A DNA stretch of 64,000 bases from contig OY759745.1 in the NCBI GenBank assembly GCA_963662685.1, forward strand, positions 17,752 through 81,751, written 5' to 3'. The number at the start of each line of letters is the position of its first letter. The stretch's first letter is position 1. A program made the position numbers and the translations under genes. Below the pieces are notes generated by a model. The model was given only the letters and a program-made list of their open reading frames with translations, did no database searches and was not told the DNA's origin. Shown here piece by piece: positions 1,316 to 39,243 of the stretch. This DNA comes from Bacteroidales bacterium. GTDB taxonomy: Bacteria; Bacteroidota; Bacteroidia; Bacteroidales; VadinHA17.

Positions 1316-1750
1316 TTATTTAACAAGCGATACCACACCAACGCCAGATCCTTTCTTGGTCCCTGTAAAATCAAAGCTTATCTGGTATATCCCACTTTTA
1401 TTACAAATAAAATCCACTGTACTGTAAGCTTTGCCGGTTTTAGCATCATATGAAGTTAAAACCAGCTTACTGTCATCATTATCCAGATTAAGTATCATCT
1501 GCTCGGGAGAATCATCAGTAGTACACATGGTAAACCTGTATTTCATGTCCTTCCAGAGTGATATATTTGCCTTGTACCTGAATTCGTTCCCACCATTATA
1601 TTCACCAAGTATTATCATGTAATCCTTGATGTACTTGGCGTCACTTCCAGCATTCTCCATACATTTACTGATAAGTAATTCGGTCGTTTGACAATAAGAT
1701 AACTGTCCCAATGCCAATATTGCCAATAATGTAAAAAGTAGTTTTTTCAT
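1316..1750 (-). CDS. Small secreted protein with a PPC-like (pre-peptidase C-terminal-like) beta-sandwich pattern; paralog of 30309-30821
   Basis: The 144-aa ORF has a signal peptide (MKKLLFTLLAILALGQLSYCQ). Its C-terminal blocks YRFTMC...ILNLDNDDSKLVLTS...FICNKSGIYQISFDF...GSGVGVVSL align by eye with 30309-30821. Confidence 0.6.
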   Translation of the reverse strand: MKKLLFTLLAILALGQLSYCQTTELLISKCMENAGSDAKYIKDYMIILGEYNGGNEFRYKANISLWKDMKYRFTMCTTDDSPEQMILNLDNDDSKLVLTSYDAKTGKAYSTVDFICNKSGIYQISFDFTGTKKGSGVGVVSLVK

Positions 1751-1885: not shown

Positions 1886-4800
1886 TTACCCATTGTTCTT
1901 CATCCTGCCCAAACCTGAGATCAGCTTTCCCAATAAATCATAATACAGCGTTATAAAAAGGATCATGGACATAATCCATATTACTATCAAATTGAAAACA
2001 AGTGTGCTCACCTGCTCTCCTGCCACATATTTGTTAGGAGCGAAAAAATGGGATCTAAGTGAGAATAGTCCCGGCTCAGAGGGATTCAGAAAAATTGGCT
2101 CAAAATTCCGAAACAGATAATCCCCTTCTCTCTTGATTTTGTCGGTAACAGTAGCCTTTCTGACAATATCAGAAAGGAACTCGTTGTAATAACTTTCACG
2201 GAATTGAACATACCCACCATTACCGGAATACTCATTCTGAAGAAACTCAATAAGTTCATTCTTTTTCTTATTTGCCGCATTATAAACCTTTACATACTTC
2301 TCATCTAAAGCGGCCAAATAAGAGAGAGCCTCATTTCCCGCACTTCCATCAAATCCATCCGGATCAAATGATTTAATGTCTATAACCGGTATATCATCAT
2401 TACGTTGAATCAGGGTAATAAATTCATTCCTCAGAAGGTCAAGGTCATTGTTAAATCCAGCATCAACTCTTTTACCAACAGCGTTTACGGCAGATACAGA
2501 TCTGTTAATGATTTTCTGCAATTCCGGAATATAAAAGGATTGGAAATAATATGCTTCACTCTCGATCTGTTCTATTTCAAAAAAGTTCTGTTCATACCTG
2601 TTACTCCGGAACTGAGTAACCGCAAGAGCCTCATAAGACCATCTTGATGCCATAATATCAGATAGAACCGGTGTGGTGTTTTTGTTTCCTCCAAATGATT
2701 TACTGATCTTATCGAAATTGAACATAGCTCCACCCAGGGCCATTTGGGGTATCACGAGTAATGGTATAAGAATATAGATCGTTACCGCTGAATCAAATGC
2801 CGATGATATATTCAATCCCAGCATATTAGCGAAACATGACACCGAAAACAATACAATCCAGTATTCAAATGACAATCCTTTTATTTCAAGTATTGTATTG
2901 CCAACAAATACAAAAATAACCATTTGTATGGCGGACAGAGTGAACAGTATCACTATTTTTGATAGTATATAACTCAATCTGGATAGATTCAGAAATCTCT
3001 CCCTTTTCAGTATTTTTCTGTCCTTGAATATCTCTTCGGCACTCACTGACAAACCAATAAACAGAGCTATAATTATGCTCATAAAAATATAAGGAGGAAT
3101 ATTCTCATTTTCGCTGAAGACATAATGATTTCTGTTATCTGGGATATATTTAATGATCATGGTCAGAAAAACAGCCATTATCGGAGCCTCAAGGAGGCTT
3201 ATAAGCACATATTGCAGGTTACTTATTTTAGAAAGGACATCTCTCTTAATAAACAAACCCGTTTGTTTGAATTTACCGGGGATTTTGAATGTTTTAGGCG
3301 GTAAAGCTTTTGTCTCTTCAACATTCTTTATTCTGAAATTGTTCAAGAACAACCGGTTCCATTCATCAGGTTCTTTGATCCTGTGTTCCGTGAACTGGCC
3401 GAATTCATCCACTTCTCTCGATTCAATTATGTTAAATAACAGTTCAGGATTAACATTTCCGCAAGCATAACACTCTCCCACCTCAGAATTTACCTGCTGT
3501 GCCTCCTTTTTGAAATACATTACAGATTCTATAGGATTACCATAATAAATGGGGTATCCTCCCCTATCAAGAAGCAGCAGGCTGTCAAACATTTTAAATA
3601 TATCTGAAGAAGGCTGGTGAATAACAACAAATACCAGTTTCATCTGAAGTGATATTTCTTTGAGTAAATCCATGACATTCTCTGAATCCCTGGAAGAAAG
3701 ACCCGAAGTCGGTTCATCAACAAAAAGAACCGAAGGTTCCCTGATAATTTCAAGAGCTATGTTCAATCTCTTTCTCTGCCCTCCGCTTATTTTCTTATTA
3801 AGAGGACCTCCGACCTTGATATCCTTGATATCCAGAAGTCCAAGCGTTGAAAGTGTTTTGTTGACGAGTTCGGTAATCCCGCCATCATCCAGATTACTGA
3901 AACACAATTTTGAGTTATAATAAAGATTTTCGAATACCGTAAGATCTTCGATCAAAAGATCATCCTGGGATATATACCCGATCATACTTTTTGTCTCGTC
4001 TATATTTCTATGTATGTCCAGACCATTTAATACAACACTTCCTTCGCAAGGTTTTTCAATTCCTGACAGCACATTTAGAAGTGTTGTTTTGCCCGATCCA
4101 CTGGCTCCCATGATGCCAATAAGACCAAATTCTTCTGAAATATTGATTTTTTTGAGACCAATGACACCATTGGGAAACCTGTATACCAAATTGTTGGCCT
4201 TAAAAGAGAGCATGTTCTTACTCTCAGTCCGGAGAAACCTTGAAACAACATCATTATAATATACAGTTCCTTTGGGCATCCTTATGGTACTTCCATTGGG
4301 AAACAGGTATATTTTGTTGGTGTTGAACAACTGCCCGTTCAAAAAGATTTCGCTTGATCCGTTATATTTGACAAAGTAGAGATCGGCGCTTTTTATACGC
4401 ATGAAAACCATAGAATTATCAAATAAAATATGATCTTTGACATACATATCTCCATCAAGACCTTCGATGTCAGATGTATTGTTACGGATTATCAATATCT
4501 CACGGAGGTTTACCTGGTCCGGCCTTATGTTTCTGATAAAACCATTGATCAGGTTAAGTTCTTCTGTTTTGATATTGAATACCTCAGATACAGTGGATAT
4601 GATTCCTATACGCTGCCCTGTAAAAGACTGTTCGGTCATAAGCATTTCATAAAGCCTGATAAGCACTATTACTTTTTGCCCATGGGTCAGTGTTTTATTT
4701 ATTTTACGACATATTGCCAGAGTCTTGACAGAATCTTTTACAGTGGTTAGCCTGCCAACACTTTTCTCTGGTTCCTTTTTGGCATGAGACTCGTCATCAA

Positions 4801-4963
4801 CTTTGCTGTCATACAGAGAGAGATACTCCTGCACTTTCTGGTCATTCAACTGCGTTGAAAGAAAGGTCTCGACAAACTTCCTTTGGTTGACCGTAGAGCC
4901 ATCGTCCTGTTTGGAAATGATAGCGAACAACTGCATCAGTGCTTTTAATATCTCTTCGCTCAT
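1886..4963 (-). CDS. ABC transporter, fused ATPase + ABC-2-type permease (ABCG-like), with an N-terminal TerB-like helical region and an FHA-like domain
   Basis: ATPase motifs: Walker A GASGSGKTTLLNVLSG, signature ISGGQRKRLNIA, Walker B VLFVDEPTSGLS. Multiple TM helices follow the NBD. The N-terminal ~270 aa contain VKYNGSSEIFLNGQLF...LFPNGSTIRMPKGTVYY, which resembles the FHA core (STNGTxVNG...GDxIxIG). The FHA call is a weaker inference. Confidence 0.85.
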   Translation of the reverse strand: MSEEILKALMQLFAIISKQDDGSTVNQRKFVETFLSTQLNDQKVQEYLSLYDSKVDDESHAKKEPEKSVGRLTTVKDSVKTLAICRKINKTLTHGQKVIVLIRLYEMLMTEQSFTGQRIGIISTVSEVFNIKTEELNLINGFIRNIRPDQVNLREILIIRNNTSDIEGLDGDMYVKDHILFDNSMVFMRIKSADLYFVKYNGSSEIFLNGQLFNTNKIYLFPNGSTIRMPKGTVYYNDVVSRFLRTESKNMLSFKANNLVYRFPNGVIGLKKINISEEFGLIGIMGASGSGKTTLLNVLSGIEKPCEGSVVLNGLDIHRNIDETKSMIGYISQDDLLIEDLTVFENLYYNSKLCFSNLDDGGITELVNKTLSTLGLLDIKDIKVGGPLNKKISGGQRKRLNIALEIIREPSVLFVDEPTSGLSSRDSENVMDLLKEISLQMKLVFVVIHQPSSDIFKMFDSLLLLDRGGYPIYYGNPIESVMYFKKEAQQVNSEVGECYACGNVNPELLFNIIESREVDEFGQFTEHRIKEPDEWNRLFLNNFRIKNVEETKALPPKTFKIPGKFKQTGLFIKRDVLSKISNLQYVLISLLEAPIMAVFLTMIIKYIPDNRNHYVFSENENIPPYIFMSIIIALFIGLSVSAEEIFKDRKILKRERFLNLSRLSYILSKIVILFTLSAIQMVIFVFVGNTILEIKGLSFEYWIVLFSVSCFANMLGLNISSAFDSAVTIYILIPLLVIPQMALGGAMFNFDKISKSFGGNKNTTPVLSDIMASRWSYEALAVTQFRSNRYEQNFFEIEQIESEAYYFQSFYIPELQKIINRSVSAVNAVGKRVDAGFNNDLDLLRNEFITLIQRNDDIPVIDIKSFDPDGFDGSAGNEALSYLAALDEKYVKVYNAANKKKNELIEFLQNEYSGNGGYVQFRESYYNEFLSDIVRKATVTDKIKREGDYLFRNFEPIFLNPSEPGLFSLRSHFFAPNKYVAGEQVSTLVFNLIVIWIMSMILFITLYYDLLGKLISGLGRMKNNG

Positions 4964-5050
4964 TTTTTGCTTTCTTAATTATTTGATAAATCCTGGTCTC
5001 AGGTTTTAGTTTTAAGTCCGTAATGTTTTATTTTCCGAACAGCTTTTTTA

Positions 5051-5434
5051 TTAAGCCGGAGAGTAGGGAATCAAATCAAAAGGAACCTCTACTATTTCCG
5101 AATATTCTTCACCAGCCTCCTGCATGTCAGTGTCTGACTCAGGATAGTGCCATATAACCTTTATATCAGAACCTGAATCCTTTATATCCTCAAGTTTCAG
5201 AAAAATATCAAGTAATAATTTTGACGACGCTGTATTAAAATATTCAAGTTTTATAGAAAGCTCCATTGTTGTTATTGGATTGTCCATCAATTCGTCAAAC
5301 CAATCCATAATCGGTTTATAAAATAATACCACATCTTCCGGAAGAGATCTTCCGGATATTTCAAAAACCCTGTTCTCCCTGTCCAGAACGACATTGGGAG
5401 TATCCTCCGTGGAGGCAATGTTTATTGTTTCCAT
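5051..5434 (-). CDS. siaC: SiaC-like regulatory phosphoprotein (DUF1987 family)
   Basis: The 127-aa ORF begins TPNVVLDRENRVFEISGRSLPEDVVLFYKPIMDWFDEL and carries LEYFNTASSKLLLDIF, with a Thr at residue 68. It sits in an operon with a PP2C phosphatase and SiaB-like kinases. Confidence 0.75.
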   Translation of the reverse strand: METINIASTEDTPNVVLDRENRVFEISGRSLPEDVVLFYKPIMDWFDELMDNPITTMELSIKLEYFNTASSKLLLDIFLKLEDIKDSGSDIKVIWHYPESDTDMQEAGEEYSEIVEVPFDLIPYSPA

Positions 5435-5451
5435 ATTGTGTGTTATATTGA

Positions 5452-6027
5452 TTATTTGTTCACGCTTATCATCAATGAAAATGTCGAGACATGGTCGTCA
5501 ATCCCCTCAATCATATAATCAAGCTTATTCTCTGATTTTCTGGCTATGTCAATTAACCCTATACCCGCTCCGGCCTTTTCTGAAAAAGAGTTGCCCAGCC
5601 TTGCCTCTTTGTACAGTTTTTTTAATCCATCCTTATCAAGACTGTTTATATGATCGATTCTTTCGCTTATCCATGATACTTTACTGTTCAGGATCAGATT
5701 ACTGGATATCAAGATATAGCAGTCAGATGTAACGCCTATCATGAAAACCGAGGAAGATGCGTTAGGTACAAGATCATAGTTTATTTTGTTTTTACTGATA
5801 TTCTGTAATACTTCAACCATTATATTGAATACCTTTCGTCTGGTATTATCCTCAACATTATCGGCTTTGAACTTCCTTTCGATAAACGACAACAGGGTCT
5901 TATTCAGTTCCTGCGAGAATTCTCCCGAATAAGCCAGCATAACATCCTTATCGTTTATCAGCTTGTAAAAACTATATATTGATGTTATCTGTCTGTTGCT
6001 TGATGTTACTTTTATTTCATTTTCCAT
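5452..6027 (-). CDS. SiaB-like Ser/Thr kinase (GHKL/anti-sigma-kinase-like ATPase), copy 2
   Basis: The 191-aa ORF has the N-terminal block MLAYSGEFSQELNKTLL and a C-terminal G-box-like KAGAGIGLIDIARKS. It is a paralog of 6040-6597. Confidence 0.7.
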   Translation of the reverse strand: MENEIKVTSSNRQITSIYSFYKLINDKDVMLAYSGEFSQELNKTLLSFIERKFKADNVEDNTRRKVFNIMVEVLQNISKNKINYDLVPNASSSVFMIGVTSDCYILISSNLILNSKVSWISERIDHINSLDKDGLKKLYKEARLGNSFSEKAGAGIGLIDIARKSENKLDYMIEGIDDHVSTFSLMISVNK

Positions 6028-6039
6028 TGCTTATCCTGA

Positions 6040-6597
6040 TTAATAATCAACCCTTGTGCTCAATGAGAAGAAAAAATGTTCTCCGTCTATCTTTTCAAAC
6101 GCGAAATCAATGGCGTTTCCGGTTTTTCTCGCTATTTGGATGAGGCCCAGGCCAAATCCAGATTTACCGGCAACGGTATCATGCTTCAAAAGATTTTTGC
6201 CAAACTCCTTGAGTTCATCTTCGTCCATCATGTTAATCCTTGCCAGCTTATCTTTGAGATCAATCACCTTTTGACGGACAATAACGTTACCACTGTTAAT
6301 GACATATCCATCTTCATTTTTACCTATCATAAAAAGATTTGAGCGACTGTATTTATCTTTCTCACTATGTTGGGTTATGTTCTGCAAACATTCGACCATT
6401 ACCGAAAATACCCTGGCCTTTGTCGTGTGGCTTGAATTAGAATGATTTAACTTGCTCTCTGTAAGATTCAGGAGCGCTATTACGATATCCTGTGACATCT
6501 CTCCCCTGTAACATAGCATAAGCCTGTCATTGTTCATATGGTCTCTTACCGCATTGACATAGCCAAGGTCTGACTGATTTATATCCCCCATTTTCAT
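6040..6597 (-). CDS. SiaB-like Ser/Thr kinase (GHKL/anti-sigma-kinase-like ATPase), copy 1
   Basis: The 185-aa ORF has MLCYRGEMSQDIVIALL and KSGFGLGLIQIARKTG. Its start overlaps the stop of the PP2C gene by 4 nt (6594-6597). Confidence 0.7.
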   Translation of the reverse strand: MKMGDINQSDLGYVNAVRDHMNNDRLMLCYRGEMSQDIVIALLNLTESKLNHSNSSHTTKARVFSVMVECLQNITQHSEKDKYSRSNLFMIGKNEDGYVINSGNVIVRQKVIDLKDKLARINMMDEDELKEFGKNLLKHDTVAGKSGFGLGLIQIARKTGNAIDFAFEKIDGEHFFFSLSTRVDY

Positions 6598-9203
6598 ATT
6601 TTTATTCCTATTACTAATACATCATCCATTTGCTTATGGTCTCCTCGCCAGACCTGATATGTTTCTCTGAAAAGAGAGCCTATCTGGAAAATGCTCAAAT
6701 GAGCGTTGTCCCGTATCATGTTGGCAACCGCGTTACTGCCAAATTTCATGTTACCGGTAGGCCCGCCAAACTGATCAGGATACCCGTCAGTCATAAAAAA
6801 AAGAGAGTCACCTTGTTTTAGCTTAATAGTCGTGTTTCCAAAATCCTTTCTGTTCCTGTACTGTGTACTTCCAACCGGAAACCTGTCGCCTTTGACAATA
6901 GTCATGGAGCCGTTACTGACATGATATAAAGGCCGGTGAGCCCCACAAAAGTCCAGAATTTTAGTCTTAAGGTTTATCCTGCAAAGAGCAGCATCCATAC
7001 CATCATTTATCCTGCACCCCTCTTCCGACTGTTTCAATCTGTCAACAACATTGACATGAAGCATGTTAAGCAATTCCCCAGCGTTTAAATCTTCATTTTT
7101 CTGGATGATAATATCCTGCAGGAAATATCCGATAACTGACATAAGCGCCCCCGGAACGCCATGTCCGGTACAATCCATAGCACCAACATAAACGCAATCT
7201 CCTTTTTCGAATAACCAGGGGTAGTCCCCACTGACCACATCCTTTGGCTGGTATATCATAAATGAGTTGGGCAATATCCCGCGAAGATCCTTTTCATCCG
7301 GCATCAAGGCACTCTGAATGTTTAACGCGTAATTGATACTGTCACTTATACTTTTCTGTTTTTTTCTGATCAGTTCCTCTCTGGCTTTCGCTTCAGTGAT
7401 ATCATGACAAGCGAACAACACTGATTCAGGCTCATTATTTTCATTAAATTCCGGTATCGCGTTAACATTCATTATTATCTCTCCATCCGGAGAAGGGAAA
7501 ATCATTTCAACACTCTTATTCTTACTACTGGCGGACACCTCTTTCAATAAATCCTTCAAGGTATCTATAACTCCTGAAGACAATTCAGTTGAAGTAATAG
7601 GTTTGTTGATATAATTATCTTTTTTGATCCCGGTATACCTCTCTATGACAGGATTTATATAGGTACAACGGCTGAATATGTCGAGTCTGATGATCAGGTC
7701 AGAACTGTTTTCTGATAGTGCCTGCATTTTTGCCCTGATGCGTTGTTCCCTGGCCGCTATTCGCTGTTCGGAAATATCTCTTGAATTAATTATGTAACCT
7801 TTAATGACTTCATCCGACAACAGGTTTTTTCCTTTCGCTTCCATCCAGAGTACTTCTCCGCCTTTTTTTAAATACCTGTACTGAGTAGTGTGTTCCCTTT
7901 CCGGAAACGATCTCATCTCATCCATTAGCCGCCTTATTCTTTCAGTATCGAGAGGGTGAACATTCTCGGTTTCATCCTTACCGAGTAATTCCTCCGGAAA
8001 GTACCCCGTGATAGCCCTAATAGACGGACTTACATACCTGATCTTTCTCCCAGCGGAAAATATTATAATTACTTCATTAGCGTTCTCCAGCAGTATTTGT
8101 GAGCGTTTGTTCGTATTATGGACCTCTTTGACCTGTTCCCCAAGTTTTATATTGGATCTTTTAAGCTCTGCCTGCGTTTTGACCAGATCTTCAGCATTTC
8201 TCATCAATTGTTTTTTTTGCAGGATCAATTCATTGCTCATCGTTTCCGACTCTTTCAGCAAATCGTAGGTTATGAGATTCACTTTCGCGTTCTGGACTGT
8301 TCTGGCAATTATTTTGGACACCTCCTCAATCTTACAGCAATCCAGTGGAGAGAATTTTCTGAATGAAGCTAGTTCTATTACACCAACAACATTGTCTTCC
8401 GCCAATAATGGAGATATCAGTATAGATTTTGGTTTGGCGTGTCCCAACAATCCCGATTTGATGGTAGCGTAATCTTCGGGTATCTCAGTTCTTACAATGA
8501 GTTCCCTCTCAAGTGCGGTCTGGCCAATAAGCCCCTGTCCGAATTTAAACCCGGCCCGCAGATATCTCTTGCGATCATAGGCATAACTAGCCTTTAGTTT
8601 TATTATATCATCTCCATTATCATCCTGTTCCACTAAATAAAAAGCTCCCTGCACCGTACCATCAAGTCTGTTGACCAGAAAAGAGATTGTATCATCACAA
8701 AGTTTATCAAGCCCTTCCCTTGATTGCAGGAGAAGTCCTATTTCACTAGCTATCCTGCTCACTTCATTCCTTTCATACTCTTTTCTTGATGTCGAAATAA
8801 TACTCTTGCGCATAGACTCAAGTGACTCCGCGAGAACTTTCTCTCCATTGACCGGGACATATCCGCAATCAAGGTTTCCCTTCTCAATCTGGTTCGCGAA
8901 CGTCATTAACCTTGTCTGCATAGTCTCATAATCTGAAACATGCTTTCTTTTTTGATCTTCCTCTTTTATTTTCCGCACCCCGGAGACCGCACCCAAGAGA
9001 CCGGAAAAAAGAGGAATAAGGTTCAGTGAGTATAGAATATTATAAGTGTTGACCAGACTTTTGTAATTACCTGATGATATTGAAAGATGTGCGGGAACCA
9101 ATGCCGCGGAAAGCGCTATAAGTCTTACTATTAAACCCGCCGAGGTGAATAACAGTATATAGCTGACAATGATTTTTATCCTTTTGACATCTTCTGAGCT
9201 CAT
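6594..9203 (-). CDS. Membrane-anchored GAF-PAS-PAS-PP2C (SpoIIE-type) protein phosphatase, SiaA/RsbU-like
   Basis: N-terminal TM helices are present. GAF block: GQTALERELIVRTEIPEDYATIKSGLLGHAKPKSILISPLL...VIELASFRKF. A coiled coil and two PAS-like segments follow. C-terminal PP2C motifs: GDYPWLF...VGAMDCTGHGVPGALMS, NDGMDAALCRI, LFFMTDGYPDQFGG, DDVLVIGIKI. Confidence 0.85.
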   Translation of the reverse strand: MSSEDVKRIKIIVSYILLFTSAGLIVRLIALSAALVPAHLSISSGNYKSLVNTYNILYSLNLIPLFSGLLGAVSGVRKIKEEDQKRKHVSDYETMQTRLMTFANQIEKGNLDCGYVPVNGEKVLAESLESMRKSIISTSRKEYERNEVSRIASEIGLLLQSREGLDKLCDDTISFLVNRLDGTVQGAFYLVEQDDNGDDIIKLKASYAYDRKRYLRAGFKFGQGLIGQTALERELIVRTEIPEDYATIKSGLLGHAKPKSILISPLLAEDNVVGVIELASFRKFSPLDCCKIEEVSKIIARTVQNAKVNLITYDLLKESETMSNELILQKKQLMRNAEDLVKTQAELKRSNIKLGEQVKEVHNTNKRSQILLENANEVIIIFSAGRKIRYVSPSIRAITGYFPEELLGKDETENVHPLDTERIRRLMDEMRSFPEREHTTQYRYLKKGGEVLWMEAKGKNLLSDEVIKGYIINSRDISEQRIAAREQRIRAKMQALSENSSDLIIRLDIFSRCTYINPVIERYTGIKKDNYINKPITSTELSSGVIDTLKDLLKEVSASSKNKSVEMIFPSPDGEIIMNVNAIPEFNENNEPESVLFACHDITEAKAREELIRKKQKSISDSINYALNIQSALMPDEKDLRGILPNSFMIYQPKDVVSGDYPWLFEKGDCVYVGAMDCTGHGVPGALMSVIGYFLQDIIIQKNEDLNAGELLNMLHVNVVDRLKQSEEGCRINDGMDAALCRINLKTKILDFCGAHRPLYHVSNGSMTIVKGDRFPVGSTQYRNRKDFGNTTIKLKQGDSLFFMTDGYPDQFGGPTGNMKFGSNAVANMIRDNAHLSIFQIGSLFRETYQVWRGDHKQMDDVLVIGIKI

Positions 9204-9212
9204 AATAGTAAA

Positions 9213-9806
9213 TCAATTATTTGATTTGTTTATCAGAATTAATATCTGATTCGCTATCATTGGCGAAATCATTTCAAAAAAGGCCGCATCATTATCATCA
9301 AACCTTCTAAATGAAGCAAGTTCAATAACAGCCAGTACCTTATCATCACTCTTAACAGGGAATGCGATTAATGATGCGGGATATGCCTTTCCTAAACCTG
9401 ATGTTATCTTAAAACAGTCATCAGGAATCTCTGATATATTAATTAGTCGACCATCTTTTGCCACCTGCCCGGGAATCCCTTCTCCTATTTCCAAAATATC
9501 TATAATATTATCCGGATCCGGTGTTGCGTAACCAGACAAAAACTTCAGCACCGGCTCGCCGTTATGGTCTGAGTTTATGTAAAAGGCGCCCTGGGATATC
9601 TCTTTCTCTTTTGAGAGTGCCGACAACAGCACAAAAGAGTAACTGACTATACTGTTTCCGTCATAATGACAGTTATTTATGAAAGCATCGGATATAGCAA
9701 CAATCCGTTCTTCAAGATTTTCTTCTCTTGTGCTTTTCGATACGATTGTTCCTTTATCGGAATTCATAGCTTTCTTCTTTTTCAGGAACTCAATCATGGC
9801 ATTCAT
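9213..9806 (-). CDS. Stand-alone GAF-domain protein
   Basis: The 197-aa ORF carries GQVAKDGRLINISEIPDDCFKITSGLGKAYPASLIAFPV...VIELASFRRF. This is the same GAF subtype as in 6594-9203 and 27340-29304. Its start overlaps the upstream cheB-like stop by 17 nt. Confidence 0.7.
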   Translation of the reverse strand: MNAMIEFLKKKKAMNSDKGTIVSKSTREENLEERIVAISDAFINNCHYDGNSIVSYSFVLLSALSKEKEISQGAFYINSDHNGEPVLKFLSGYATPDPDNIIDILEIGEGIPGQVAKDGRLINISEIPDDCFKITSGLGKAYPASLIAFPVKSDDKVLAVIELASFRRFDDNDAAFFEMISPMIANQILILINKSNN

Positions 9807-10383
9807 TTTTCAGTTTGTGTATAAAACCTGATATTTCCATATCAGTAAGCACCTCGTGTGGGGTAAAATATTTAAAGACCTCATTGGGCATAGTTCTAAA
9901 GCTTGCGTTATCAGGACTCTGAACTATGGTATACGCACCGTTCCGGTATGCGCTAAACAGCCCTCTGGCACCATCTGAATTGGCACCGGAAAGAATAATG
10001 CCGATCATATTGTTCCTTGCGGCATAACCAGCTGTCATAAATGTAAGATCAAGAGACGGCCGCGAATAGTTAATATCGGGCTCTGTTGAAAGAGCGATTT
10101 TATAACCGGGCTCCACTAACATATGATAATTTGCCGGACTCAGATAAGCAACTCCAGGTTCAATAGTTGTCTTGTCAAGCGGTTCCATTATACGTACCGC
10201 TGACCCTCGGTTCAATGATTCGACAAATCCATTTCTGAATTCCTTGAGCCTGTGCAGACAAAAAAGCAGTGGAAACGGAAAGTTATCGGGAATAGATGAG
10301 AGAATTTTCTGCACCACGGGAAAACTTCCCGCGGATCCCCCTATAACTATTATTTTCATTTTTTCTTTCATTATTTCTCGCAT
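9790..10383 (-). CDS. cheB: CheB-type protein-glutamate methylesterase, catalytic domain only (no receiver domain)
   Basis: A Ser/His/Asp triad context is present: KIIVIGGSAGSFPVVQKIL, LFCLHRL, ILSGANSDGARG. The ORF-track start at 10509 would overlap cheR by 100 nt, so I prefer the internal start MREIMKEKMKIIVIGG at 10383, 26 nt after the cheR stop. Confidence 0.8.
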   Translation of the reverse strand: MREIMKEKMKIIVIGGSAGSFPVVQKILSSIPDNFPFPLLFCLHRLKEFRNGFVESLNRGSAVRIMEPLDKTTIEPGVAYLSPANYHMLVEPGYKIALSTEPDINYSRPSLDLTFMTAGYAARNNMIGIILSGANSDGARGLFSAYRNGAYTIVQSPDNASFRTMPNEVFKYFTPHEVLTDMEISGFIHKLKNECHD

Positions 10384-10408
10384 AAATCCGGTTTGCCGGC
10401 ACAAATAT

Positions 10409-11242
10409 TCAGCCTGCCTTTCTTTTATATATTTTCTCTTCGAAATTTTCTTCAGTAAAATACCTGGCTGCTCTGCACCAACCAATAGACTCCTTTGACC
10501 CCAAACCAAGAAAAGAATCAGGAAGCAACGCTCTACTGAACTTATATATCACTCTATCCTGAAAATCAGAATTGAAATAAATAAGAACATTCCTGCACAA
10601 AATCAGATCATACGATTCTAATGCATTGTTCTGGACAAGATTATGATACCTGAATTCAGTATTTGACAGCAAACCTTTGTTGAAATGAACCGTATTCCCA
10701 ACATGCATATAATAATCACTTAGTTTACGGTTGCCTCCATATTTAACATAGTTACTTTCATAGAGATCCATGTTTTTGACCGGACACTCTCCATGTCGCG
10801 CTATATCAAGTACGTTCCTGTTCAAATCAGTTGCCAGAATTCTTGCCTTGTCCAACATCCCGGACTCCTCAAGTATGATTGCCATAGTATAAACTTCCTC
10901 TCCGGTAGAACATGCCGTTAACCATATATTTAGTTGCCGTCTCTCCTTCAATTGCGGTAGTATTCTGTCTCTTAAGTGAGTCCAAAAAGAGGGATCCCTG
11001 AACATTTCCGTTACGTTAACGGTAATCTGCCACACAAGTTGATCAGCATAGTCTCTGTCAAACCTGACCATCTCTGTCAATGACTTTATTGTCGGAATCT
11101 TATTAATCTCCATGAATCTTACTATTCTGCGTTTGTAAGAAGAAAAAGCATAACCGCCGAAATCAATCCCTGTTGCTTCTCTCAAAGCATCCGAAACCTT
11201 ATGCAAGTCTCCCAACTCAATATTTTTCACCATTGAATCCAA
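10409..11242 (-). CDS. cheR: CheR-type protein-glutamate O-methyltransferase (second copy)
   Basis: TEMFRDPSFW, WLTACSTGEEVYTMAIIL and DLILCRNVLIYFN are classic CheR SAM-MTase motifs. Confidence 0.9.
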   Translation of the reverse strand: MDSMVKNIELGDLHKVSDALREATGIDFGGYAFSSYKRRIVRFMEINKIPTIKSLTEMVRFDRDYADQLVWQITVNVTEMFRDPSFWTHLRDRILPQLKERRQLNIWLTACSTGEEVYTMAIILEESGMLDKARILATDLNRNVLDIARHGECPVKNMDLYESNYVKYGGNRKLSDYYMHVGNTVHFNKGLLSNTEFRYHNLVQNNALESYDLILCRNVLIYFNSDFQDRVIYKFSRALLPDSFLGLGSKESIGWCRAARYFTEENFEEKIYKRKAG

Positions 11243-25198: not shown

Positions 25199-25525
25199 TT
25201 ATTGCCTAATGTTTATCATGTCCCCAAATCCGGTATTACACATAAGATCAACCACATAAATTTCATCATCGCAATTAATCAACAACGATTGCCCCATATC
25301 TGCCAACTTTTTTCGATATGAGTAAAGCACCTGTATGCTGGTCAGGTCATATGAATCTATATTTCTAAGGTCAATTACGACATTGCTCCCATCCGGGTTC
25401 AACGATTCAAGGGCATGTTTCAGATTAATTATTTCCTTTACTGCGATATCGCCCTCAAGTTTAATATGATAAAGGTTATCGCTTTCATTTGTACCCGATT
25501 GTATTTTGAATCCTGTATTACTCAT
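25199..25525 (-). CDS. STAS-domain protein (anti-sigma-antagonist-like)
   Basis: The 108-aa ORF has the pattern IKLEGDIAVKEI...VVIDLRNIDSYDLTSIQVLYSYRKKL. The Ser in IDS sits at the position phosphorylated in SpoIIAA/RsbV-type proteins. Confidence 0.7.
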   Translation of the reverse strand: MSNTGFKIQSGTNESDNLYHIKLEGDIAVKEIINLKHALESLNPDGSNVVIDLRNIDSYDLTSIQVLYSYRKKLADMGQSLLINCDDEIYVVDLMCNTGFGDMINIRQ

Positions 25526-25537: not shown

Positions 25538-27322
25538 TTAAAACAGCTCTATATCATAATCATCCGTATTATCCTTCGCGGAAATGCTATCGGTGAAACC
25601 ATCGTTTATAACCTGATCATGAACAATCCTTTCGCTAGCTACCGTATAAAACACTTCCATCTCTTTGAGATTCTTCTCTTTCAGACTTTTACAACTACTT
25701 TCCCCATCTTTTTTCAACCGATAGTTAATCATATCTAACTTGCCAATAATATTAGCCAGAAGTTTTTCGAATAATTCATTATAATCGGCCTGGTTCAATA
25801 TGTTCTTCAGACGATCCATAACGTCTTTCTTGATGCTTCCATTCTCAACTATAACTGCATCCATATTTTTGCCTTCAACATCAAGCTGATCAAGTACTTT
25901 ACTGACTTTGACCATGACTTTTATCTGTTCTTCTTCAAGAGAGGTCCTAAAACCCGAATTATCGAACTTAACCTGGAATGCTTCCGATAATCCTCTAAAC
26001 TCTGACAATTCCTTCTCCATTTCAGAATTTTTTTCGAAAATATCTCCGATCAATGATGCTATTTGAACCACTATATTGGGCTTTTCTGCAGCATTATTCC
26101 TTGAAAAAACACTTATAGGTATTCCCGGTTCAAGATTTTTCAAAGGCCTAGTCAATGATTTATTCGCTTTATCGCAAACCTTATCGACCAAACCCCTAAT
26201 ACTAAGCAAGTCAGCATTAAATATATTCGAATTGTATTCATCAAGAACCATAAGGAACCTGTCGAGCCGACCTTTCACGACATTTAATAGAGTTGTCCCG
26301 GAATCGGATTCATCCAGAGAAAATTCATGCGAAACCGTTGATACCATAGTAATATCACCAGCAATCTTCTGGAAATTCCGGGAAATGACATCAAGGGCAT
26401 TCTGATACTCCTTTGAGATAAGAATCAGTTGAGCCGACTGGAGTCCGGAAAGGTCGGCTATAAGCGACAATATATCATCATCATCGCTGATAATTATGTC
26501 GCCGCCATGTTCATCAAGCTTAGCCACCAGTTTCGCCGTGATTTTCTCGTGCGACTCATGGATATGCTCTATTTTCTGCCTTATTATATCATGATACTGC
26601 AGGTGCTTGATAATATTGGCAATAGAATCTGTCGTACTTTTCAACTTTTCCCTGATTTCTGGAACATACATCCTTGATTCCATCTTTTTCTTTTTTATCA
26701 ATGAAATAGACGATTTCAGTTCTTCAAAAAAAACCGCATTTATGGCAATACATTTTTGTGAATGCGACCTTACGGCATCGTTCAGAGTTTCCAGTTTTTT
26801 TCTGACAATAACAGTATGCTCATCGAGTACCGTCAAACAGGCAAGAATACCGTCAACATACTTTTCCCATCTGTTTATTTCACCCAAAGCAATAACCGAC
26901 AGCTCCTCGTTTCTTGAAATGACTTTATAATTTGAGAACAGAAATTTCAGTGTCAGCATATCCTGCTTCATATTTCTTATCAGCAACAAAATACTATCAG
27001 CCTTAGCGTTAAGCTTTGACTCTGTCATAAGATTTACATCCAGTTCATTCTCGGTGCCAGATCTGAAATCAACATATTCATCAAATATGTCGTACAATTC
27101 GGATGAAAAAGAGTAATCACCGTTATCCGCTATCGAATCAAATATATGTGTCGCATTGGACGTAACTGTGTTATTCTTTTTAGAATAGTCTTTCAGAAAA
27201 CTATTTAAATGCATAAACACCTGCGATGAACTGTCATATAGTTCACGGATTATCAAGTCAATATCATGAAAGACTCCAAGAAGCTCTCCAATTTTAATAT
27301 ACCTGTCGTCCTGTTTCAACAT
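25538..27322 (-). CDS. Hypothetical 594-aa helical protein with an HDxxxQ motif and an acidic C-terminal tail
   Basis: The ORF has no TM helix or signal peptide. The central segment is IIKHLQYHDIIRQKIEHIHESHEKI and the C-terminus is ...KDNTDDYDIELF. It sits 12 nt upstream of the STAS gene. Confidence 0.8.
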   Translation of the reverse strand: MLKQDDRYIKIGELLGVFHDIDLIIRELYDSSSQVFMHLNSFLKDYSKKNNTVTSNATHIFDSIADNGDYSFSSELYDIFDEYVDFRSGTENELDVNLMTESKLNAKADSILLLIRNMKQDMLTLKFLFSNYKVISRNEELSVIALGEINRWEKYVDGILACLTVLDEHTVIVRKKLETLNDAVRSHSQKCIAINAVFFEELKSSISLIKKKKMESRMYVPEIREKLKSTTDSIANIIKHLQYHDIIRQKIEHIHESHEKITAKLVAKLDEHGGDIIISDDDDILSLIADLSGLQSAQLILISKEYQNALDVISRNFQKIAGDITMVSTVSHEFSLDESDSGTTLLNVVKGRLDRFLMVLDEYNSNIFNADLLSIRGLVDKVCDKANKSLTRPLKNLEPGIPISVFSRNNAAEKPNIVVQIASLIGDIFEKNSEMEKELSEFRGLSEAFQVKFDNSGFRTSLEEEQIKVMVKVSKVLDQLDVEGKNMDAVIVENGSIKKDVMDRLKNILNQADYNELFEKLLANIIGKLDMINYRLKKDGESSCKSLKEKNLKEMEVFYTVASERIVHDQVINDGFTDSISAKDNTDDYDIELF

Positions 27323-29366: not shown

Positions 29367-30272
29367 TTATTGATTGTAAATGAGCCGGGAACGTATTTCC
29401 CTTACAAGATTAGCGACTTCATCAACCTGTTCGTACGAGATCATGGCCTTTGAAGTACTTTTATCTACTATCACCAGCCTGCCATCAATCTCAACAGCCT
29501 CTGGCTCCCGATATTCATATGATATTGTTATTTCAGAGTAAAGATACTTAAGGTCGTTCATATCAGCCAGAATATCTATGAAATAACTATCTTCCGAGTA
29601 AGCCGATAGCCCCAGGATAAGTTGGTCTATAATAGCTTTCTGATGACCAATCCATTGCATGATATCGTCATTATTCCGTATCATATAATTCTGAGACGCG
29701 ATGTAAAGACCCTCAAGCCACGTACCAAAAACCATCAATATACTCATGTTACTTCTTTTCTTGGAACGCAGGAAAGAATCCATGTTATTGAAATTAATGG
29801 TTGTCAGATAAATGAGAGAATCCATCTGGGAACTGTTCGATGCCATCCGTTTGATTGTCGCGAAATCAAAAAACTGGCCTATATCTATATCGTCCGCCAG
29901 TTTTTGAATAGTGCCCAGATAGTTTATCATCAAATATGTCTTTTCATAAATATTGATATATCCCATATCAGCGCTGTAAACGCCAAGTCCCAGGGCTTTG
30001 GACATATCGTTGGTATAAAGCTGAATGTTATCAATATCATTAAGAAACTCCTCCTCAAAATCAATCCCGTTGTGCTCAAGAACCATCGCAATCTCTATAG
30101 GAGATGGAATTGATTCTATTATTTCATTCATAGATTCTTCCGAAATCTCCAGATTCTCAGATTCTTCAGCGAGTAAGGAATCGATGGAGAGTTTATCATT
30201 ATTTGCTTGTCTCCCTCCACATGCTGATAACAAAATAGCTATAGCGACTAAAAAAACGATTTTTATCTTCAT
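29367..30272 (-). CDS. Hypothetical lipoprotein
   Basis: The lipobox MKIKIVFLVAIAILLSAC appears if translation starts at the ATG at 30272; the track start at 30302 adds 10 aa. I recognise no family. Confidence 0.65.
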   Translation of the reverse strand: MKIKIVFLVAIAILLSACGGRQANNDKLSIDSLLAEESENLEISEESMNEIIESIPSPIEIAMVLEHNGIDFEEEFLNDIDNIQLYTNDMSKALGLGVYSADMGYINIYEKTYLMINYLGTIQKLADDIDIGQFFDFATIKRMASNSSQMDSLIYLTTINFNNMDSFLRSKKRSNMSILMVFGTWLEGLYIASQNYMIRNNDDIMQWIGHQKAIIDQLILGLSAYSEDSYFIDILADMNDLKYLYSEITISYEYREPEAVEIDGRLVIVDKSTSKAMISYEQVDEVANLVREIRSRLIYNQ

Positions 30273-30308
30273 GAATATATAATTTGAAATTTCCGAAACC
30301 ATTTTTAT

Positions 30309-30821
30309 TTATTGTTTTATTCCAAGGATGCACATCCCACATCCTGATTTTGAATTCTTAAACTGTACCCTCATGTAATAAAGTCCTGTAGCCGAGCATA
30401 AAAACTTCAGATTCGAAAAAACCTCGCCATCTTCCCGGCAAGTAGAGGCTATAAGCCTGTCTTCCCGGTCATAAAGATTGATTATAATATTAGCACTGCT
30501 CTCCTCCTTCCCTTCACACGCTATAATTATATACTCCGCTCCTTCACTGAATACATAATAGAGTTCAGACTTATCCATTTTTCTCTTACTGGAAACAAAT
30601 GATTGAATATAGTGGTACTCCTCCAGATTGACGGAACAGCTATGTAGAAATGCCCCCGTATCACACTGCCCATATGAAGTATATGAAAAAAGAAAGGCAC
30701 ACATAAATACACAGATTGTATATAAACATCCCCGGCTTTTATCCAAATACCCTCTATTCAATGAATAACTCTCCATGTATTTAATTTTCATCTCAGATTT
30801 TTTTCGCATAAATTTTGGCAT
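30309..30821 (-). CDS. Small secreted PPC-like protein, paralog of 1316-1750 (start codon uncertain)
   Basis: Hydrophobic leader ...CVFMCAFLFSYTSYGQ. Blocks YIIIACEG...IIINLYDREDRLIAST...FLCSATGLYYMRVQF...GCGMCILGI align by eye with 1316-1750. Confidence 0.55.
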   Translation of the reverse strand: MPKFMRKKSEMKIKYMESYSLNRGYLDKSRGCLYTICVFMCAFLFSYTSYGQCDTGAFLHSCSVNLEEYHYIQSFVSSKRKMDKSELYYVFSEGAEYIIIACEGKEESSANIIINLYDREDRLIASTCREDGEVFSNLKFLCSATGLYYMRVQFKNSKSGCGMCILGIKQ

Positions 30822-31099: not shown

Positions 31100-31762
31100 C
31101 TATCTAATGTCAACAAGCCTGTTTTTAACGGCATAAATTACCAGCCCCAGCGAGTCTTTAACTCCAACCTTATTTATCATTATAGATTTATAATTCTCCA
31201 GGGTACGTTGGCTTATTGACAGGTCTTTTGAGATTTCCGCATTCGTTTTTCCCAGGCAGATCATCTTTAGTATTGACTGTTCCATCATATTCATTCTTAC
31301 GAATGTTTTGTTTTGCGTGGCTACCTCTGAAACAGGGCCCTGTTTCTTGGATATTAATTTATGTATAAGTTTCGGGGAAAAGTATTGTTCGCCTTTTACC
31401 ACTGATCGAATTGCCCTGAACAGTTCTTCCTTTCCTGAATCTTTCAAGATATATCCGGAAATGCCAGATGAGACTAATCGGTCATAGTACTCTTTATCAC
31501 TTAACATAGACAGTACTATTATCTTAAGTTCTGGTTGTTTCTTCAGTGCGGCCTCAATAGCTTCAACTCCGTTCATTCCCGGCATCATAATGTCCATCAA
31601 GACAACGTTCACTTTAACTGTATCGATCATGTCGAGAAAATCATTGCCATTAGTAGCCTCACCAACAACTTCAATATCTTTTGAGTTGGAGAATACAACC
31701 ATCATAACTTCCCGAAACAACTTATGATCATCGACAATTATTACTTTAATATTATTTTCCAT
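31100..31762 (-). CDS. NarL/FixJ-family response regulator (REC + LuxR-type HTH), orphan
   Basis: REC motifs: VIIVDDHKLFRE, VLMDIMMPGMNG, ILKD. C-terminal HTH: EISKDLSISQRTLENYKSIMINKVG. The ATG at 31762 (MENNIKV...) is preferred. Confidence 0.85.
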   Translation of the reverse strand: MENNIKVIIVDDHKLFREVMMVVFSNSKDIEVVGEATNGNDFLDMIDTVKVNVVLMDIMMPGMNGVEAIEAALKKQPELKIIVLSMLSDKEYYDRLVSSGISGYILKDSGKEELFRAIRSVVKGEQYFSPKLIHKLISKKQGPVSEVATQNKTFVRMNMMEQSILKMICLGKTNAEISKDLSISQRTLENYKSIMINKVGVKDSLGLVIYAVKNRLVDIR

Positions 31763-32455
31763 TTGAATATCATTCATAATATGTATAAAACCAATCACAT
31801 AACCTTAAGCATCAGTATTAACTCTTTAGTCCGGACAAAAACACGAAAACCCAAAGAATAAAATCGCTGTCATCAGATATGATCGGGCAACGATCATACC
31901 AGGAACAGACATACGCTTTACTCGCCTATCCCCCGTTCAGACTTTTCAACGGAAAAAACCAGATCGTGTTCCGAAAATTTTGTTCTTTGTTCTCATAAAA
32001 TACAAACTTTTGATAAACAACAATACTTTATAGGAGTAAAATGTTTATATCTGTTTTACGTGACAATATCAGTAGTTTCAGCGCCAATCCCAGTTTAAAA
32101 CTTAGAATATAGAGCTATAAATTAGTTGCATTAACTGTTCCATTTAGTATTGCTATCAGCAACTTAATCCAATTATTACAAGTTTTTGTTATTCAAAATT
32201 AGCATATTAGGGCTATCAACAACCACAGGATTACCCCCTTTTTTCATGCTTTTATTACTTGATTATTTTTACAATGCACCAGTAAAATCACTGATGAAGC
32301 CTCTCCTGACCCAAGAGAAAGCAAGAGACAGACATATACACTATTGTCTCCGTTCTTTCATTTCAGCCCACCTACTCCCGCAACAAATAAAGAATTCCTA
32401 ACTATAAAAATAACTAAGCACAAATTTTTTGAATGCGGTACATATAACAATTATG

Positions 32456-33127
32456 CTAGAATAGTGAAATATTTACATATTTATTCTTAATGGCGTACAT
32501 CACCAAACTGATTGAATTCTTAACACCTGTCTTGCTCAACAAATTAGACTTGTGTCCTTCTATTGTTCTTAAGCTAAGGCATAACTTATCAGATATCTCA
32601 CTATTTGATAAACCCTGGCATATAAGGTTCAATATCTCAGTCTCACGATTGGTCAGCTTGACTTTATCATTTTCCTGGTCACTCTTGTTTGTTTTTCCCT
32701 TATCCAAAGAGACAAGAATATGATGTAGTATTTTTTGTGAAAAATAATTTTCTCCCGAAACCACGGTTTCCATAGCCTCAATAAGCTCATCTTTGCCCGA
32801 ATCTTTTAACACGTAACCGGAAACACCAGCCTGAACCGCCTTATAATAATAATCCTCATCACAGAACATCGTAAGAGCGATTACCTTCAGATCCGGATTT
32901 TTCGTAAGCGCTCGTTTAGTCGCTTCAATCCCATCAATATTCGGCATAGAAATATCCATTATTACTATATCAGCATCCAACTCTTCTATCTGCTTCAGAA
33001 ACGCTTTACCATTAGATGCCTCACCTACAACTTCAAAATTTTTTAACTTAGAAATCATAAATGCCAACCCTTCCCTGAATATCTTATGATCATCCACCAA
33101 TATTATCTTAACTTTATCCTTAGTCAT
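32456..33127 (-). CDS. NarL/FixJ-family response regulator (REC + LuxR-type HTH), orphan
   Basis: REC motifs: IILVDDHKIFRE, VIMDISMPNIDG, YVLKD. HTH: EISDKLCLSLRTIEGHKSNLLSKTG. Confidence 0.9.
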   Translation of the reverse strand: MTKDKVKIILVDDHKIFREGLAFMISKLKNFEVVGEASNGKAFLKQIEELDADIVIMDISMPNIDGIEATKRALTKNPDLKVIALTMFCDEDYYYKAVQAGVSGYVLKDSGKDELIEAMETVVSGENYFSQKILHHILVSLDKGKTNKSDQENDKVKLTNRETEILNLICQGLSNSEISDKLCLSLRTIEGHKSNLLSKTGVKNSISLVMYAIKNKYVNISLF

Positions 33128-38070: not shown

Positions 38071-39243
38071 ATGAGAATTCTTTACTACGACTGTTTTTCG
38101 GGCATTAGCGGCGACATGAACCTTGGGGCGATGATTGATTTGGGCGTTGACAAGAAATATCTTTTGGATCAGTTAAACAGTCTTTGGTTGGAAGGTTGGG
38201 AATTAATCGTGGAAAAAGATCAACGGCATGGAATTACGGGAACAAAAGTAACTGTAAAACAGACAAAACATGAGCATATTCACAGGCATTTATCAGATAT
38301 TGAAAAGATAATAGACGGATCGGGATTAAAAGCCGAAGACAAGACCTTAAGCAGGAAAATATTCGAAGCAGTAGCTCAAGCCGAAGCTAAAGTGCATAAT
38401 GTGCCGGTTGACAAGATACATTTTCATGAGGTAGGTGCCATCGATTCTATCATTGACATTGTCGGTGCCGCAATCTGCTTCAATTCTCTTGGTATTGATG
38501 AGGTACATGTTTCTGCAGTAGAATTAGGAAGAGGTTCGGTGAAATGCGCTCACGGCATTTTGCCTGTACCGACCCCCGCCACCGTGGAAATCATAAAGGG
38601 AATACCTGTATCCAAAGATGGTGTGAATTTTGAAGCGACTACACCGACAGGTGCCGCTATAATCGCTACCCTGGGCAATTGTTTCGAAGAAAAGGGATCA
38701 TTTAAAATAGAAAAATGCGGGTATGGAATAGGACAAAGAGAAAATCCGGAGAGACCAAACATATTACGTCTCTTTATCGGGGAATCGGATGAGTCGTCAT
38801 CCGTAGATAACGCGATACAGATAGAATGCAATATTGATGACATGAATCCTGAATGGTATGGATACATTTCCGGACGTCTCTTCGATTCCGGTGCCTCAGA
38901 TGTTTTTTACTCCAGCATTACGATGAAGAAAGGAAGACCATCCATGTTACTAAGTGTCATTTGCGCAAAAGAGAAAGAAAAGGAGCTTAAAGAGATTATT
39001 TTTACGGAAACGACTACTCTGGGCGTAAGGATTTTCCCTTTCAGAAAAGAGACATTAGCCAGAAAATTTGAGAGAGTTAATACTCCTTTGGGTCCGGTAA
39101 GAATTAAAAGATCGTTTCTGGATGGGCGGTTAGTTACAGAAAAACCTGAGTATGAAGATTGTAAAAAAATAGCGAAAGAGAAAGAATTGCCATTAAAAAA
39201 AGTGTATGACGGCATACTGTCGTTCATAAAAAAGGATGTATGA
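38071..39243 (+). CDS. larC: LarC nickel-insertion protein (nickel-pincer nucleotide cofactor biosynthesis)
   Basis: MRILYYDCFSGISGDMNLGAMIDLGV and HFHEVGAIDSIIDIVG are the DUF111/LarC signature. Confidence 0.85.
   Translation: MRILYYDCFSGISGDMNLGAMIDLGVDKKYLLDQLNSLWLEGWELIVEKDQRHGITGTKVTVKQTKHEHIHRHLSDIEKIIDGSGLKAEDKTLSRKIFEAVAQAEAKVHNVPVDKIHFHEVGAIDSIIDIVGAAICFNSLGIDEVHVSAVELGRGSVKCAHGILPVPTPATVEIIKGIPVSKDGVNFEATTPTGAAIIATLGNCFEEKGSFKIEKCGYGIGQRENPERPNILRLFIGESDESSSVDNAIQIECNIDDMNPEWYGYISGRLFDSGASDVFYSSITMKKGRPSMLLSVICAKEKEKELKEIIFTETTTLGVRIFPFRKETLARKFERVNTPLGPVRIKRSFLDGRLVTEKPEYEDCKKIAKEKELPLKKVYDGILSFIKKDV

Follow-up and report, generated by a model that had tools for sequence, protein, structure and literature searches.

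Introduction

The known targets of partner switches are sigma factors and, as found more recently, cyclases. Here we describe a switch of the SiaABC type that has an ATP-binding cassette (ABC) exporter as its next gene, encoded in a 64,000-nucleotide stretch of DNA (hereafter the window) from a Bacteroidales bacterium of the VadinHA17 lineage (GenBank assembly GCA_963662685.1, contig OY759745.1, positions 17,752 to 81,751). The closest described system is SiaABCD of Pseudomonas aeruginosa (PA0172-PA0169), which has in common with the window a PP2C phosphatase, a SiaB-type kinase, a DUF1987/SiaC protein with Thr68 and the same operon order. In P. aeruginosa SiaC (PaSiaC) the mapped phosphosite is T68 (PMC7647112). 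Unphosphorylated SiaC binds the helical stalk of the cyclase SiaD through helices α2 and α3, with Y65, N67, T68 and S69 at the interface, and phosphorylation of T68 abolishes the binding (PMC8457831). The authors of the SiaC work further suggested that DUF1987 proteins may act as modulators of adjacent proteins. The window proteins keep the catalytic residues as well as the interface residues Y65, N67 and T68. Compared to SiaABCD, however, the window has no SiaD or GGDEF output, the ABC exporter being the next gene, carries a GAF-PAS-PAS sensor region where PaSiaA has a different N-terminal region, has a duplicated kinase, and presents a Bacteroidota module that is embedded in a chemosensory (Che) cluster.

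Three membrane systems bear on the exporter side of the locus. In the E. coli MlaFEDB system, a small STAS-fold protein is likewise encoded with an ABC transporter, and a Thr at the start of helix α2 of MlaB could control binding to MlaF (PMC7367683). By contrast, the window encodes a kinase and a phosphatase next door, none being known for MlaB, and its transporter is an ABCG-type exporter, not one of the Mla class. Rv1747 of Mycobacterium tuberculosis is an exporter with the order FHA-FHA-nucleotide-binding domain (NBD)-transmembrane domain (TMD), regulated by PknF through Ser/Thr phosphorylation (PMC3138270). It shares with the window protein an ABC-2/ABCG-like exporter part and an N-terminal FHA-fold region. 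Nevertheless, Rv1747 has two canonical phosphothreonine (pThr)-binding FHA domains and a Hanks-type kinase, whereas the window has a TerB-like domain followed by a single degenerate FHA-like one, a GHKL-type SiaB kinase and a STAS-like intermediary; no Hanks-type kinase domain was matched among the 47 window open reading frames (ORFs) scanned. EssC and YscD, from membrane export machines, likewise have a cytoplasmic N-terminal FHA fold, one of the non-phospho-binding kind with divergent phosphopeptide loops, and the EssC FHA domain is among the Foldseek matches of the exporter β domain described below. These proteins are components of type VII or type III secretion systems, not ABC transporters, and have no sequence relationship to the window protein. 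Full-text literature searches turned up neither a SiaABC-type switch with a coupled transporter nor any account of the ABC family of this exporter, and such a coupling appears to be undescribed before.

Gene organization and conservation of the locus

Five co-oriented and closely packed ORFs on the minus strand encode, in order of reading, the phosphatase, two kinases, the SiaC-like protein and the ABC exporter (Table 1). The stop codon of the phosphatase gene overlaps the start of the upstream-copy kinase gene by 4 nucleotides, and the following junctions are gaps of 12, 17 and 87 nucleotides. An earlier reading made from the letters of the window (hereafter the sequence-only reading) had given this gene order, coordinates and final spacing, all of which were confirmed. 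A terminator scan found no terminator-like site in the 87-nucleotide spacer between the SiaC-like and ABC genes, and an Rfam scan of this spacer was also empty.

That reading had proposed a SiaABC-type switch lacking a cyclase, with no GGDEF gene in the window. Indeed, a regular-expression search found no GG[DE]EF-type motif in any window ORF of at least 100 residues, and the GGDEF Pfam domain had no match among the 47 ORFs scanned. The same motif is absent from the ORFs of at least 150 residues in 80 related loci, which lends further support to the proposal. In a collection with a single genome for each species, at least 587 stretches encode relatives of the exporter N-terminal module, and these loci are the best 80 among them. 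They were retrieved with patterns taken from the N-terminal helix of the exporter, and almost all are labelled Bacteroidota, from several groups within that phylum.

In the related loci with at least 500 nucleotides upstream of the ABC gene, the SiaC-like gene lies directly upstream in 76 of 77, with a median gap of 38 nucleotides. Thus the conserved neighbour, for which a GGDEF gene had been considered, is the ABC exporter. At least one SiaB-like gene is present in all loci assessed (74/74), and 63 of 67 have a SiaA-like PP2C gene within 3.5 kb. Moreover, Carboxylicivirga and Saccharicrinis keep the series SiaB, SiaC, ABC, 305-residue protein and small protein amid unrelated upstream genes, which indicates that SiaB-SiaC-ABC-lipoprotein-small protein is the core unit. 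The tight adjacency of the SiaC-like and ABC genes, together with the invariance of the phosphosite segment described below, argues for a functional coupling of switch and exporter, which we regard as well supported by the comparison of sequences; the synteny evidence for the link is strong.

The switch proteins retain catalytic and interface residues

The SiaC-like protein matches PF09345 with an E-value of 2e-39 and 134 bits (cutoff 24.5). A gapless alignment to PaSiaC places Thr68 of its LEYFNTASSK segment opposite the Thr of LYLNTSS, which bears out the earlier assignment of Thr68 as the counterpart of the mapped phosphosite. Thr68 and the segment YFNTASSK are invariant in all 76 orthologues of the related loci (76/76), and the PaSiaC residues Y65, N67 and T68 that contact SiaD are invariant in SiaC-like proteins of the window type.

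The phosphatase is composed of two to three N-terminal transmembrane segments followed by GAF, PAS, PAS and SpoIIE/PP2C domains. The sole PDB match of its PP2C part is PaSiaA (6k4e), with an E-value of 6e-36. Compared with the catalytic residues listed for PaSiaA (PMC7647112), the motifs SGDY, DCTGHGVPGA, TDGYPDQ and DDV are kept, including the metal-binding Asp residues and the catalytic Gly.

Both kinases are assigned to the SiaB family by NF038262 (SiaB_fam_kinase), with scores of 154 bits for the upstream copy and 151 bits for the SiaC-side copy against a cutoff of 85, and they align to PaSiaB (6kko_A) with E-values of 2e-15 and 6e-10, respectively. The catalytic Glu is kept as Glu69 in the upstream copy and Glu72 in the SiaC-side copy, and the QN motif is present in both. 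The profile searches therefore sustain the DUF1987 and SiaB-type assignments of the sequence-only reading, whereas its third assignment, an FHA domain in the exporter, found no match to a hidden Markov model (HMM). All three Sia-like components nevertheless score below the NCBIfam equivalog cutoffs (SiaA, full-length, 164 against 700; SiaB, NF038264, 87 for the upstream and 77 for the SiaC-side copy against 225; SiaC, 86.8 against 150), and by this measure they are family members rather than equivalogs. The low SiaA score is explained by the sensor region, which differs from that of PaSiaA. As shown by homology, the phosphatase and the SiaB kinase(s) would set the phosphorylation of Thr68 in the SiaC-like protein.

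The two window kinases are 37% identical to each other. Apart from the window, only its closest relatives (L001-L005, L059 and L081) have two SiaB genes, and the duplication is restricted to this sublineage (6/74 loci). In a clade analysis covering the window and L001-L005, each copy forms its own clade, and the two clades are sisters and equidistant from the single-copy kinases; this pattern points to a single duplication after which both copies diverged. The comparison thus indicates one lineage-specific event that left both copies catalytically intact. A second substrate had been suggested as the reason for the extra kinase, with the STAS protein of the window (25199-25525) as a candidate; that the two copies form a heterodimeric kinase is equally plausible. 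In the STAS protein, Ser58 of the IDS motif is retained. Searches of the related loci gave no match for STAS, CheA or CheW within flanks of up to 10 kb, the window STAS gene itself lying about 19 kb from the kinases.

A 594-residue protein (25538-27322) adjoins the STAS gene and has no Pfam or NCBIfam match; tblastn gave a weak likeness to the SiaB N-box region (E 0.064, 26819-27028), unconfirmed by either of these collections. In L081 (5765-13078), the closest metagenomic relative, which sits on a 250-kb contig, several ORFs each make up the phosphatase and ABC genes, while both kinase genes are fused as one ORF of 385 residues, most likely through frameshift errors in the assembly. This explains the many “partial” homologues in the protein search.

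Structure of the exporter and its N-terminal head

The exporter has an NBD followed by a TMD, with intact Walker A, Walker B, Q-loop, signature and H-loop motifs, and its nearest solved relatives are CDR1, Pdr5, ABCG2 and ABCG5. A loop of about 240 residues (746-985), probably periplasmic, is poorly conserved and has no Pfam match at E=10. Preceding the NBD is a regulatory head; a Pfam scan of residues 1-263 gave nothing even at E=10. The AlphaFold2 (AF2) model of these residues, built from 66 homologues, reached a predicted local distance difference test score (pLDDT) of 86.5 and a predicted template modelling score (pTM) of 0.83, and consists of a helical bundle (residues 3-144), a small β-sandwich (156-235) and a helix (236-247). 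An independent model of residues 150-250 alone gave a pLDDT of 83.9. The helical bundle is TerB-like, as most homologues of residues 1-263 carry a precomputed PF05099 (TerB) match in the first ~140 residues; the Alkaliflexus orthologue scores 25.0 bits against this family (cutoff 24.4), the window protein giving no match. The sequence-only reading was silent on the TerB-like domain, the ~240-residue loop and the conservation across a phylum.

Structural similarity search using Foldseek against the PDB returned FHA domains as all of the top 50 matches, both for the two-domain model and for the isolated β domain. For the latter, the best matches have query-normalised TM-scores of 0.50-0.57, with E-values of only ~3e-3, and include the FHA domains of Mek1 (TM 0.56/0.55) and Bdellovibrio DgcB (TM 0.56/0.55, with a root-mean-square deviation of 2.7 Å over 81 columns). 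A PDB search with the whole N-terminal alignment was dominated by its NBD overhang; with the β-domain profile, the only credible match was again the Mek1 FHA domain (E 0.011). The Pfam FHA family (PF00498) gave no match at E=10 for the window protein, the isolated β domain or 32 family members. Searched without filter against 1.84 billion representatives, the β-domain profile reached 378 clusters, with no canonical FHA proteins among the matches listed. The 150 listed were fragments or full-length proteins of ~970-1160 residues of the exporter's own ABC family, the latter having the β domain at about residues 140-270, with starts from ~140 to 220.

The strings quoted in the sequence-only reading correspond to residues 200-211 and 220-230 and align to the FHA scaffold “SxNGTxLNG ... 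L..GD.I”. In the Mek1 alignment, and in one to Rad53, the family-invariant N209-G210 falls on the structural “LNG” of FHA domains. The canonical S/T-N-G-T motif maps to positions 202-206, where the family has G/S at the first, D/E/Q/S at the third and a hydrophobic residue at the fifth, the second and fourth being variable; the canonical Asn thus corresponds to position 204, a variable D/E/Q/S. No conserved GR or SxxH motif was found in the N-terminal half of the β domain, a half that could not be aligned by sequence and whose register was taken from secondary structure. Alignment to Rad53 FHA1 and GarA covers only the C-terminal half and lacks significance for GarA. The conserved residues of the domain are R/K189, S192, K/R199, N209, G224, K/R228 and a YYSD motif. 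The β domain is therefore best described, on the modelled structure, as a degenerate, family-specific FHA-like fold. The FHA-like fold that had been read from the letters is borne out by AF2 and Foldseek, but neither an HMM match nor the canonical pThr-binding residues accompany it.

Conservation of the N-terminal helix of the head, MSEEILKALMQLFAII.KQD.G (residues 1-22, 4898-4963), begins at the initiator Met. Measured on a set retrieved independently, the mean top-residue frequency of this helix is 0.59, compared with 0.41-0.42 for the rest of the module. The helix is a candidate for docking or autoinhibition.

The head is broader than its connection to the switch

Twelve further family members, mostly divergent representatives from the profile search, have varied gene contexts. 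In L090 the genes just upstream of the ABC gene encode a HAMP-PAS-PP2C protein, SiaB and SiaC, and L088 has SiaB and SiaC 2.5 kb downstream of it. L083 (2359-5727) has only a GAF-PAS-PP2C protein directly upstream, without SiaB or SiaC, and L082 (4875-5978) a REC-HATPase_c protein. L010 (3973-10882) has two Reg_prop/Y_Y_Y-PP2C sensors next door and neither SiaB nor SiaC, and six of the twelve show no Sia genes in view. Since the head is found in members without Sia genes, it appears older and broader than the Sia connection. By this comparison, SiaB and SiaC are a regulatory add-on that typifies a large ABC subfamily, one that includes the window protein. The neighbours in L082, L083 and L010 hint that one and the same transporter head may receive several kinds of phospho-signalling input. 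L010 was also compared as a means of locating the SiaC docking site and proved uninformative, as 65 of 66 module residues are kept.

Proposed mechanism

Taking these results together, we tentatively favour a SiaABC-type partner switch that has the ABC exporter as its output instead of a diguanylate cyclase and whose SiaC-like protein docks in the unphosphorylated state, a model to which we assign a probability just under one half. The membrane-bound GAF-PAS-PAS-PP2C phosphatase and the SiaB kinase(s) would adjust the phosphorylation of Thr68. The SiaC-like protein would bind the cytoplasmic part of the adjacent exporter, the likeliest site being the TerB-like/FHA-like head, in its unphosphorylated state, as SiaC does on the SiaD stalk, and phosphorylation would release it. 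Binding and release would switch the ATPase and export activity of the exporter, which probably works with the conserved periplasmic lipoprotein of ~305 residues and the small secreted protein. As a Che cluster ends, on its downstream side, with the switch in this genome and in many relatives, the switch may be the non-motility output of the chemosensory pathway. Direct gating of the exporter by the kinase/phosphatase pair, through the STAS-like phosphoprotein on the TerB/FHA-like head, is possible at a slightly lower level of confidence than the model as a whole.

Neither the window nor the related loci show a GGDEF protein or another obvious output, and the exporter has a dedicated, confidently modelled cytoplasmic N-terminal module whose N-terminal helix is its best conserved part. 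There is also a precedent in the STAS protein MlaB, which regulates the ABC ATPase MlaF with a Thr at the interface (PMC7367683). Binding of the unphosphorylated protein is preferred to capture of phosphorylated Thr68 by the FHA-like domain because the FHA Asn is unconserved, no FHA HMM matches and no GR or SxxH motif could be aligned, and because phosphorylation of T68 abolishes target binding in Pseudomonas and the interface residues are invariant here. Hence, where the sequence-only reading had the switch rewired to the exporter through an FHA-like domain reading pThr68, the coupling to the exporter is well supported, and the FHA read-out fails, a lack of pThr-binding residues being what that reading itself had named as refuting it.

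Several points weigh against this model. That the SiaC-like protein binds the exporter is something we infer, and which phospho-state would bind is drawn by analogy with Pseudomonas. Synteny cannot separate an output from a co-sensor. Among the 80 loci the N-terminal helix looks more conserved than it is, since patterns from this helix were used to retrieve them. Furthermore, the TerB/FHA-like module is retained without nearby SiaB or SiaC in L082-L087, L089, L091 and L010, the last keeping the 65 of 66 conserved module residues with no SiaC adjacent, which argues that the head is not a dedicated SiaC receptor.

Alternative explanations

The alternative that survives best, although we judge it unlikely, is that the exporter is not the output but a flux co-sensor of the Bce type, or merely co-expressed, and that the SiaC-like protein has an unlinked target, for instance a sigma or anti-sigma factor or another enzyme. 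It draws on the lack of direction in synteny, on classical partner switches, which act on anti-sigma kinases, on the two LuxR-type response regulators that share the supercluster with several sensor proteins, and on the family members without any Sia genes. However, the minimal SiaB-SiaC-ABC-lipoprotein-small protein unit holds no other candidate output, the cluster genes scanned include none for a sigma factor, and the very tight adjacency of SiaC and ABC genes seen in all but one of the loci also speaks against it.

Somewhat less probable still is that the SiaC-like protein binds the NBD directly, in the fashion of MlaB and MlaF, leaving the head to autoinhibition, oligomerisation or ligand sensing. 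SiaC is structurally STAS-like, transporters without a Sia link share the head module, and MlaFB has a Thr at the equivalent position in the NBD interface, where a phosphomimetic weakens binding (PMC7367683). Yet MlaF contacts MlaB via a special C-terminal extension, and the NBDs of the ABCG and Mla types are distant from each other.

Capture of phosphorylated Thr68 by the FHA-like domain, in which phosphorylation would recruit rather than release the SiaC-like protein, is improbable. The FHA-like fold with its weak sequence link to Mek1 speaks for it, as does the existence of an FHA-regulated ABCG-like exporter, Rv1747 (PMC3138270), and the invariant or near-invariant K/R199, K/R228, R/K189 and S192 could form a non-canonical phosphate site. 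Nevertheless, the Asn of the canonical SxNGT is replaced by a variable D/E/Q/S with no conserved GR or SxxH, the 32 members tested at E=10 and the matches listed from the 1.84 billion representatives hold no trace of canonical FHA domains, the domain exists in family members without SiaC, and in Pseudomonas phosphorylated T68 does not bind its target (PMC8457831).

Least probable of all, and in our view quite doubtful, is that the head itself is the substrate of kinase and phosphatase, with SiaC as a competitor or adaptor: the PP2C standing alone upstream in L083, the two PP2C sensors of L010 and the REC-HATPase_c protein of L082, all without SiaC, the phosphorylation of Rv1747 on its regulatory module (PMC3138270) and the near-invariant S192 and S237 would fit it, but SiaB kinases are not known to phosphorylate anything other than SiaC, the conserved Ser residues sit in structured turns, and SiaB and SiaC could lie elsewhere in those fragmentary contigs.

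Neighbouring genes

The ~305-residue lipoprotein is the most constant neighbour of the ABC family and adjoins the ABC gene in several divergent members. In the window, its counterpart of 311 residues lies apart, followed by a 170-residue paralogue of the small protein that trails the ABC gene (Table 1); by sequence and gene order, these two genes (29367-30821) are a displaced copy of a pair found, in most other genomes, right after the ABC gene. The displacement makes the region from ~1.3 to 31 kb look like one rearranged supercluster. No Pfam or PDB relative was found for the 311-residue lipoprotein or the 144-residue protein.

Upstream of the phosphatase, the GAF protein, the receiver-less CheB and CheR are conserved in 58-63 related loci. 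Many of the related loci have this CheB/CheR methylation pair without an adjacent methyl-accepting chemotaxis protein (MCP). The window continues into a full Che cluster with CheA, CheW, CheY, CheB, CheD, two MCPs and the STAS protein. Two LuxR-type response regulators (REC and GerE domains; 31100-33127) lie at the upstream end of the Che/Sia supercluster and are possible transcriptional outputs. Further on, three co-oriented genes (38071-40800), unrelated to the switch, encode Ni_insertion (PF01969), PP-loop ATP-binding and AIR-carboxylase proteins, a set that resembles LarC, LarE and LarB of nickel-pincer cofactor synthesis.

Table 1. Genes and domains of the switch-exporter locus and its neighbours, in window coordinates
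Feature	Coordinates	Strand	Basis or remark
144-residue secreted or lipoprotein-like small protein	1316..1750	-	homologues downstream of ABC gene in most loci
ABCG-type half-transporter with N-terminal regulatory module, 1025 residues	1886..4963	-	ABC_tran and ABC2_membrane
~240-residue loop, residues 746-985, between TM5 region and last transmembrane segment	2009..2728	-	hydropathy
Nucleotide-binding domain, residues 255-480	3524..4201	-	Pfam and motif inspection
FHA-like β-sandwich, residues 156-247, without canonical pThr residues	4223..4498	-	AF2 and Foldseek
TerB-like all-helical domain, residues 1-145	4529..4963	-	AF2 helices; homologues with PF05099
SiaC-family (DUF1987, STAS-like) protein, 127 residues	5051..5434	-	PF09345; Thr68 codon 5231-5233
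SiaB-family Ser/Thr kinase, copy beside SiaC, 191 residues	5452..6027	-	NF038262 and Pfam DUF6272
SiaB-family Ser/Thr kinase, upstream copy, 185 residues	6040..6597	-	NF038262 and Pfam DUF6272
SiaA-like sensor phosphatase, 869 residues	6594..9203	-	Pfam and NCBIfam, transmembrane prediction, PDB match
Stand-alone GAF protein directly upstream of phosphatase	9213..9806	-	Pfam GAF_2; same position in related loci
Receiver-less CheB methylesterase	9790..10509	-	Pfam; upstream in 63 related loci
CheR methyltransferase	10409..11242	-	Pfam; upstream in 58 related loci
311-residue lipoprotein	29367..30302	-	40% identical to 305-residue gene product just after ABC gene in Alkaliflexus
170-residue small protein	30309..30821	-	paralogue of 144-residue protein (1316-1750)

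Implications

If the favoured model is true, a transporter would be a direct target of a partner switch, which is a new class of output. Phospho-regulated control of an ABC transporter by a STAS protein would then be real, not merely hypothesised as for MlaB, and the question raised for MlaFB, whether Ser/Thr phosphorylation of a STAS-fold protein regulates an ABC transporter, would be answered. The work also defines an unannotated, family-specific regulatory head, composed of a TerB-like and a degenerate FHA-like domain, and two uncharacterised envelope partners. The module is spread over the Bacteroidota, with at least 587 stretches, and is often joined to Che genes in organisms without flagella. 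It would thus supply the missing output of a chemosensory pathway that is widespread in non-flagellated Bacteroidota, and may reveal what such pathways control, for example the export of a surface or envelope component.

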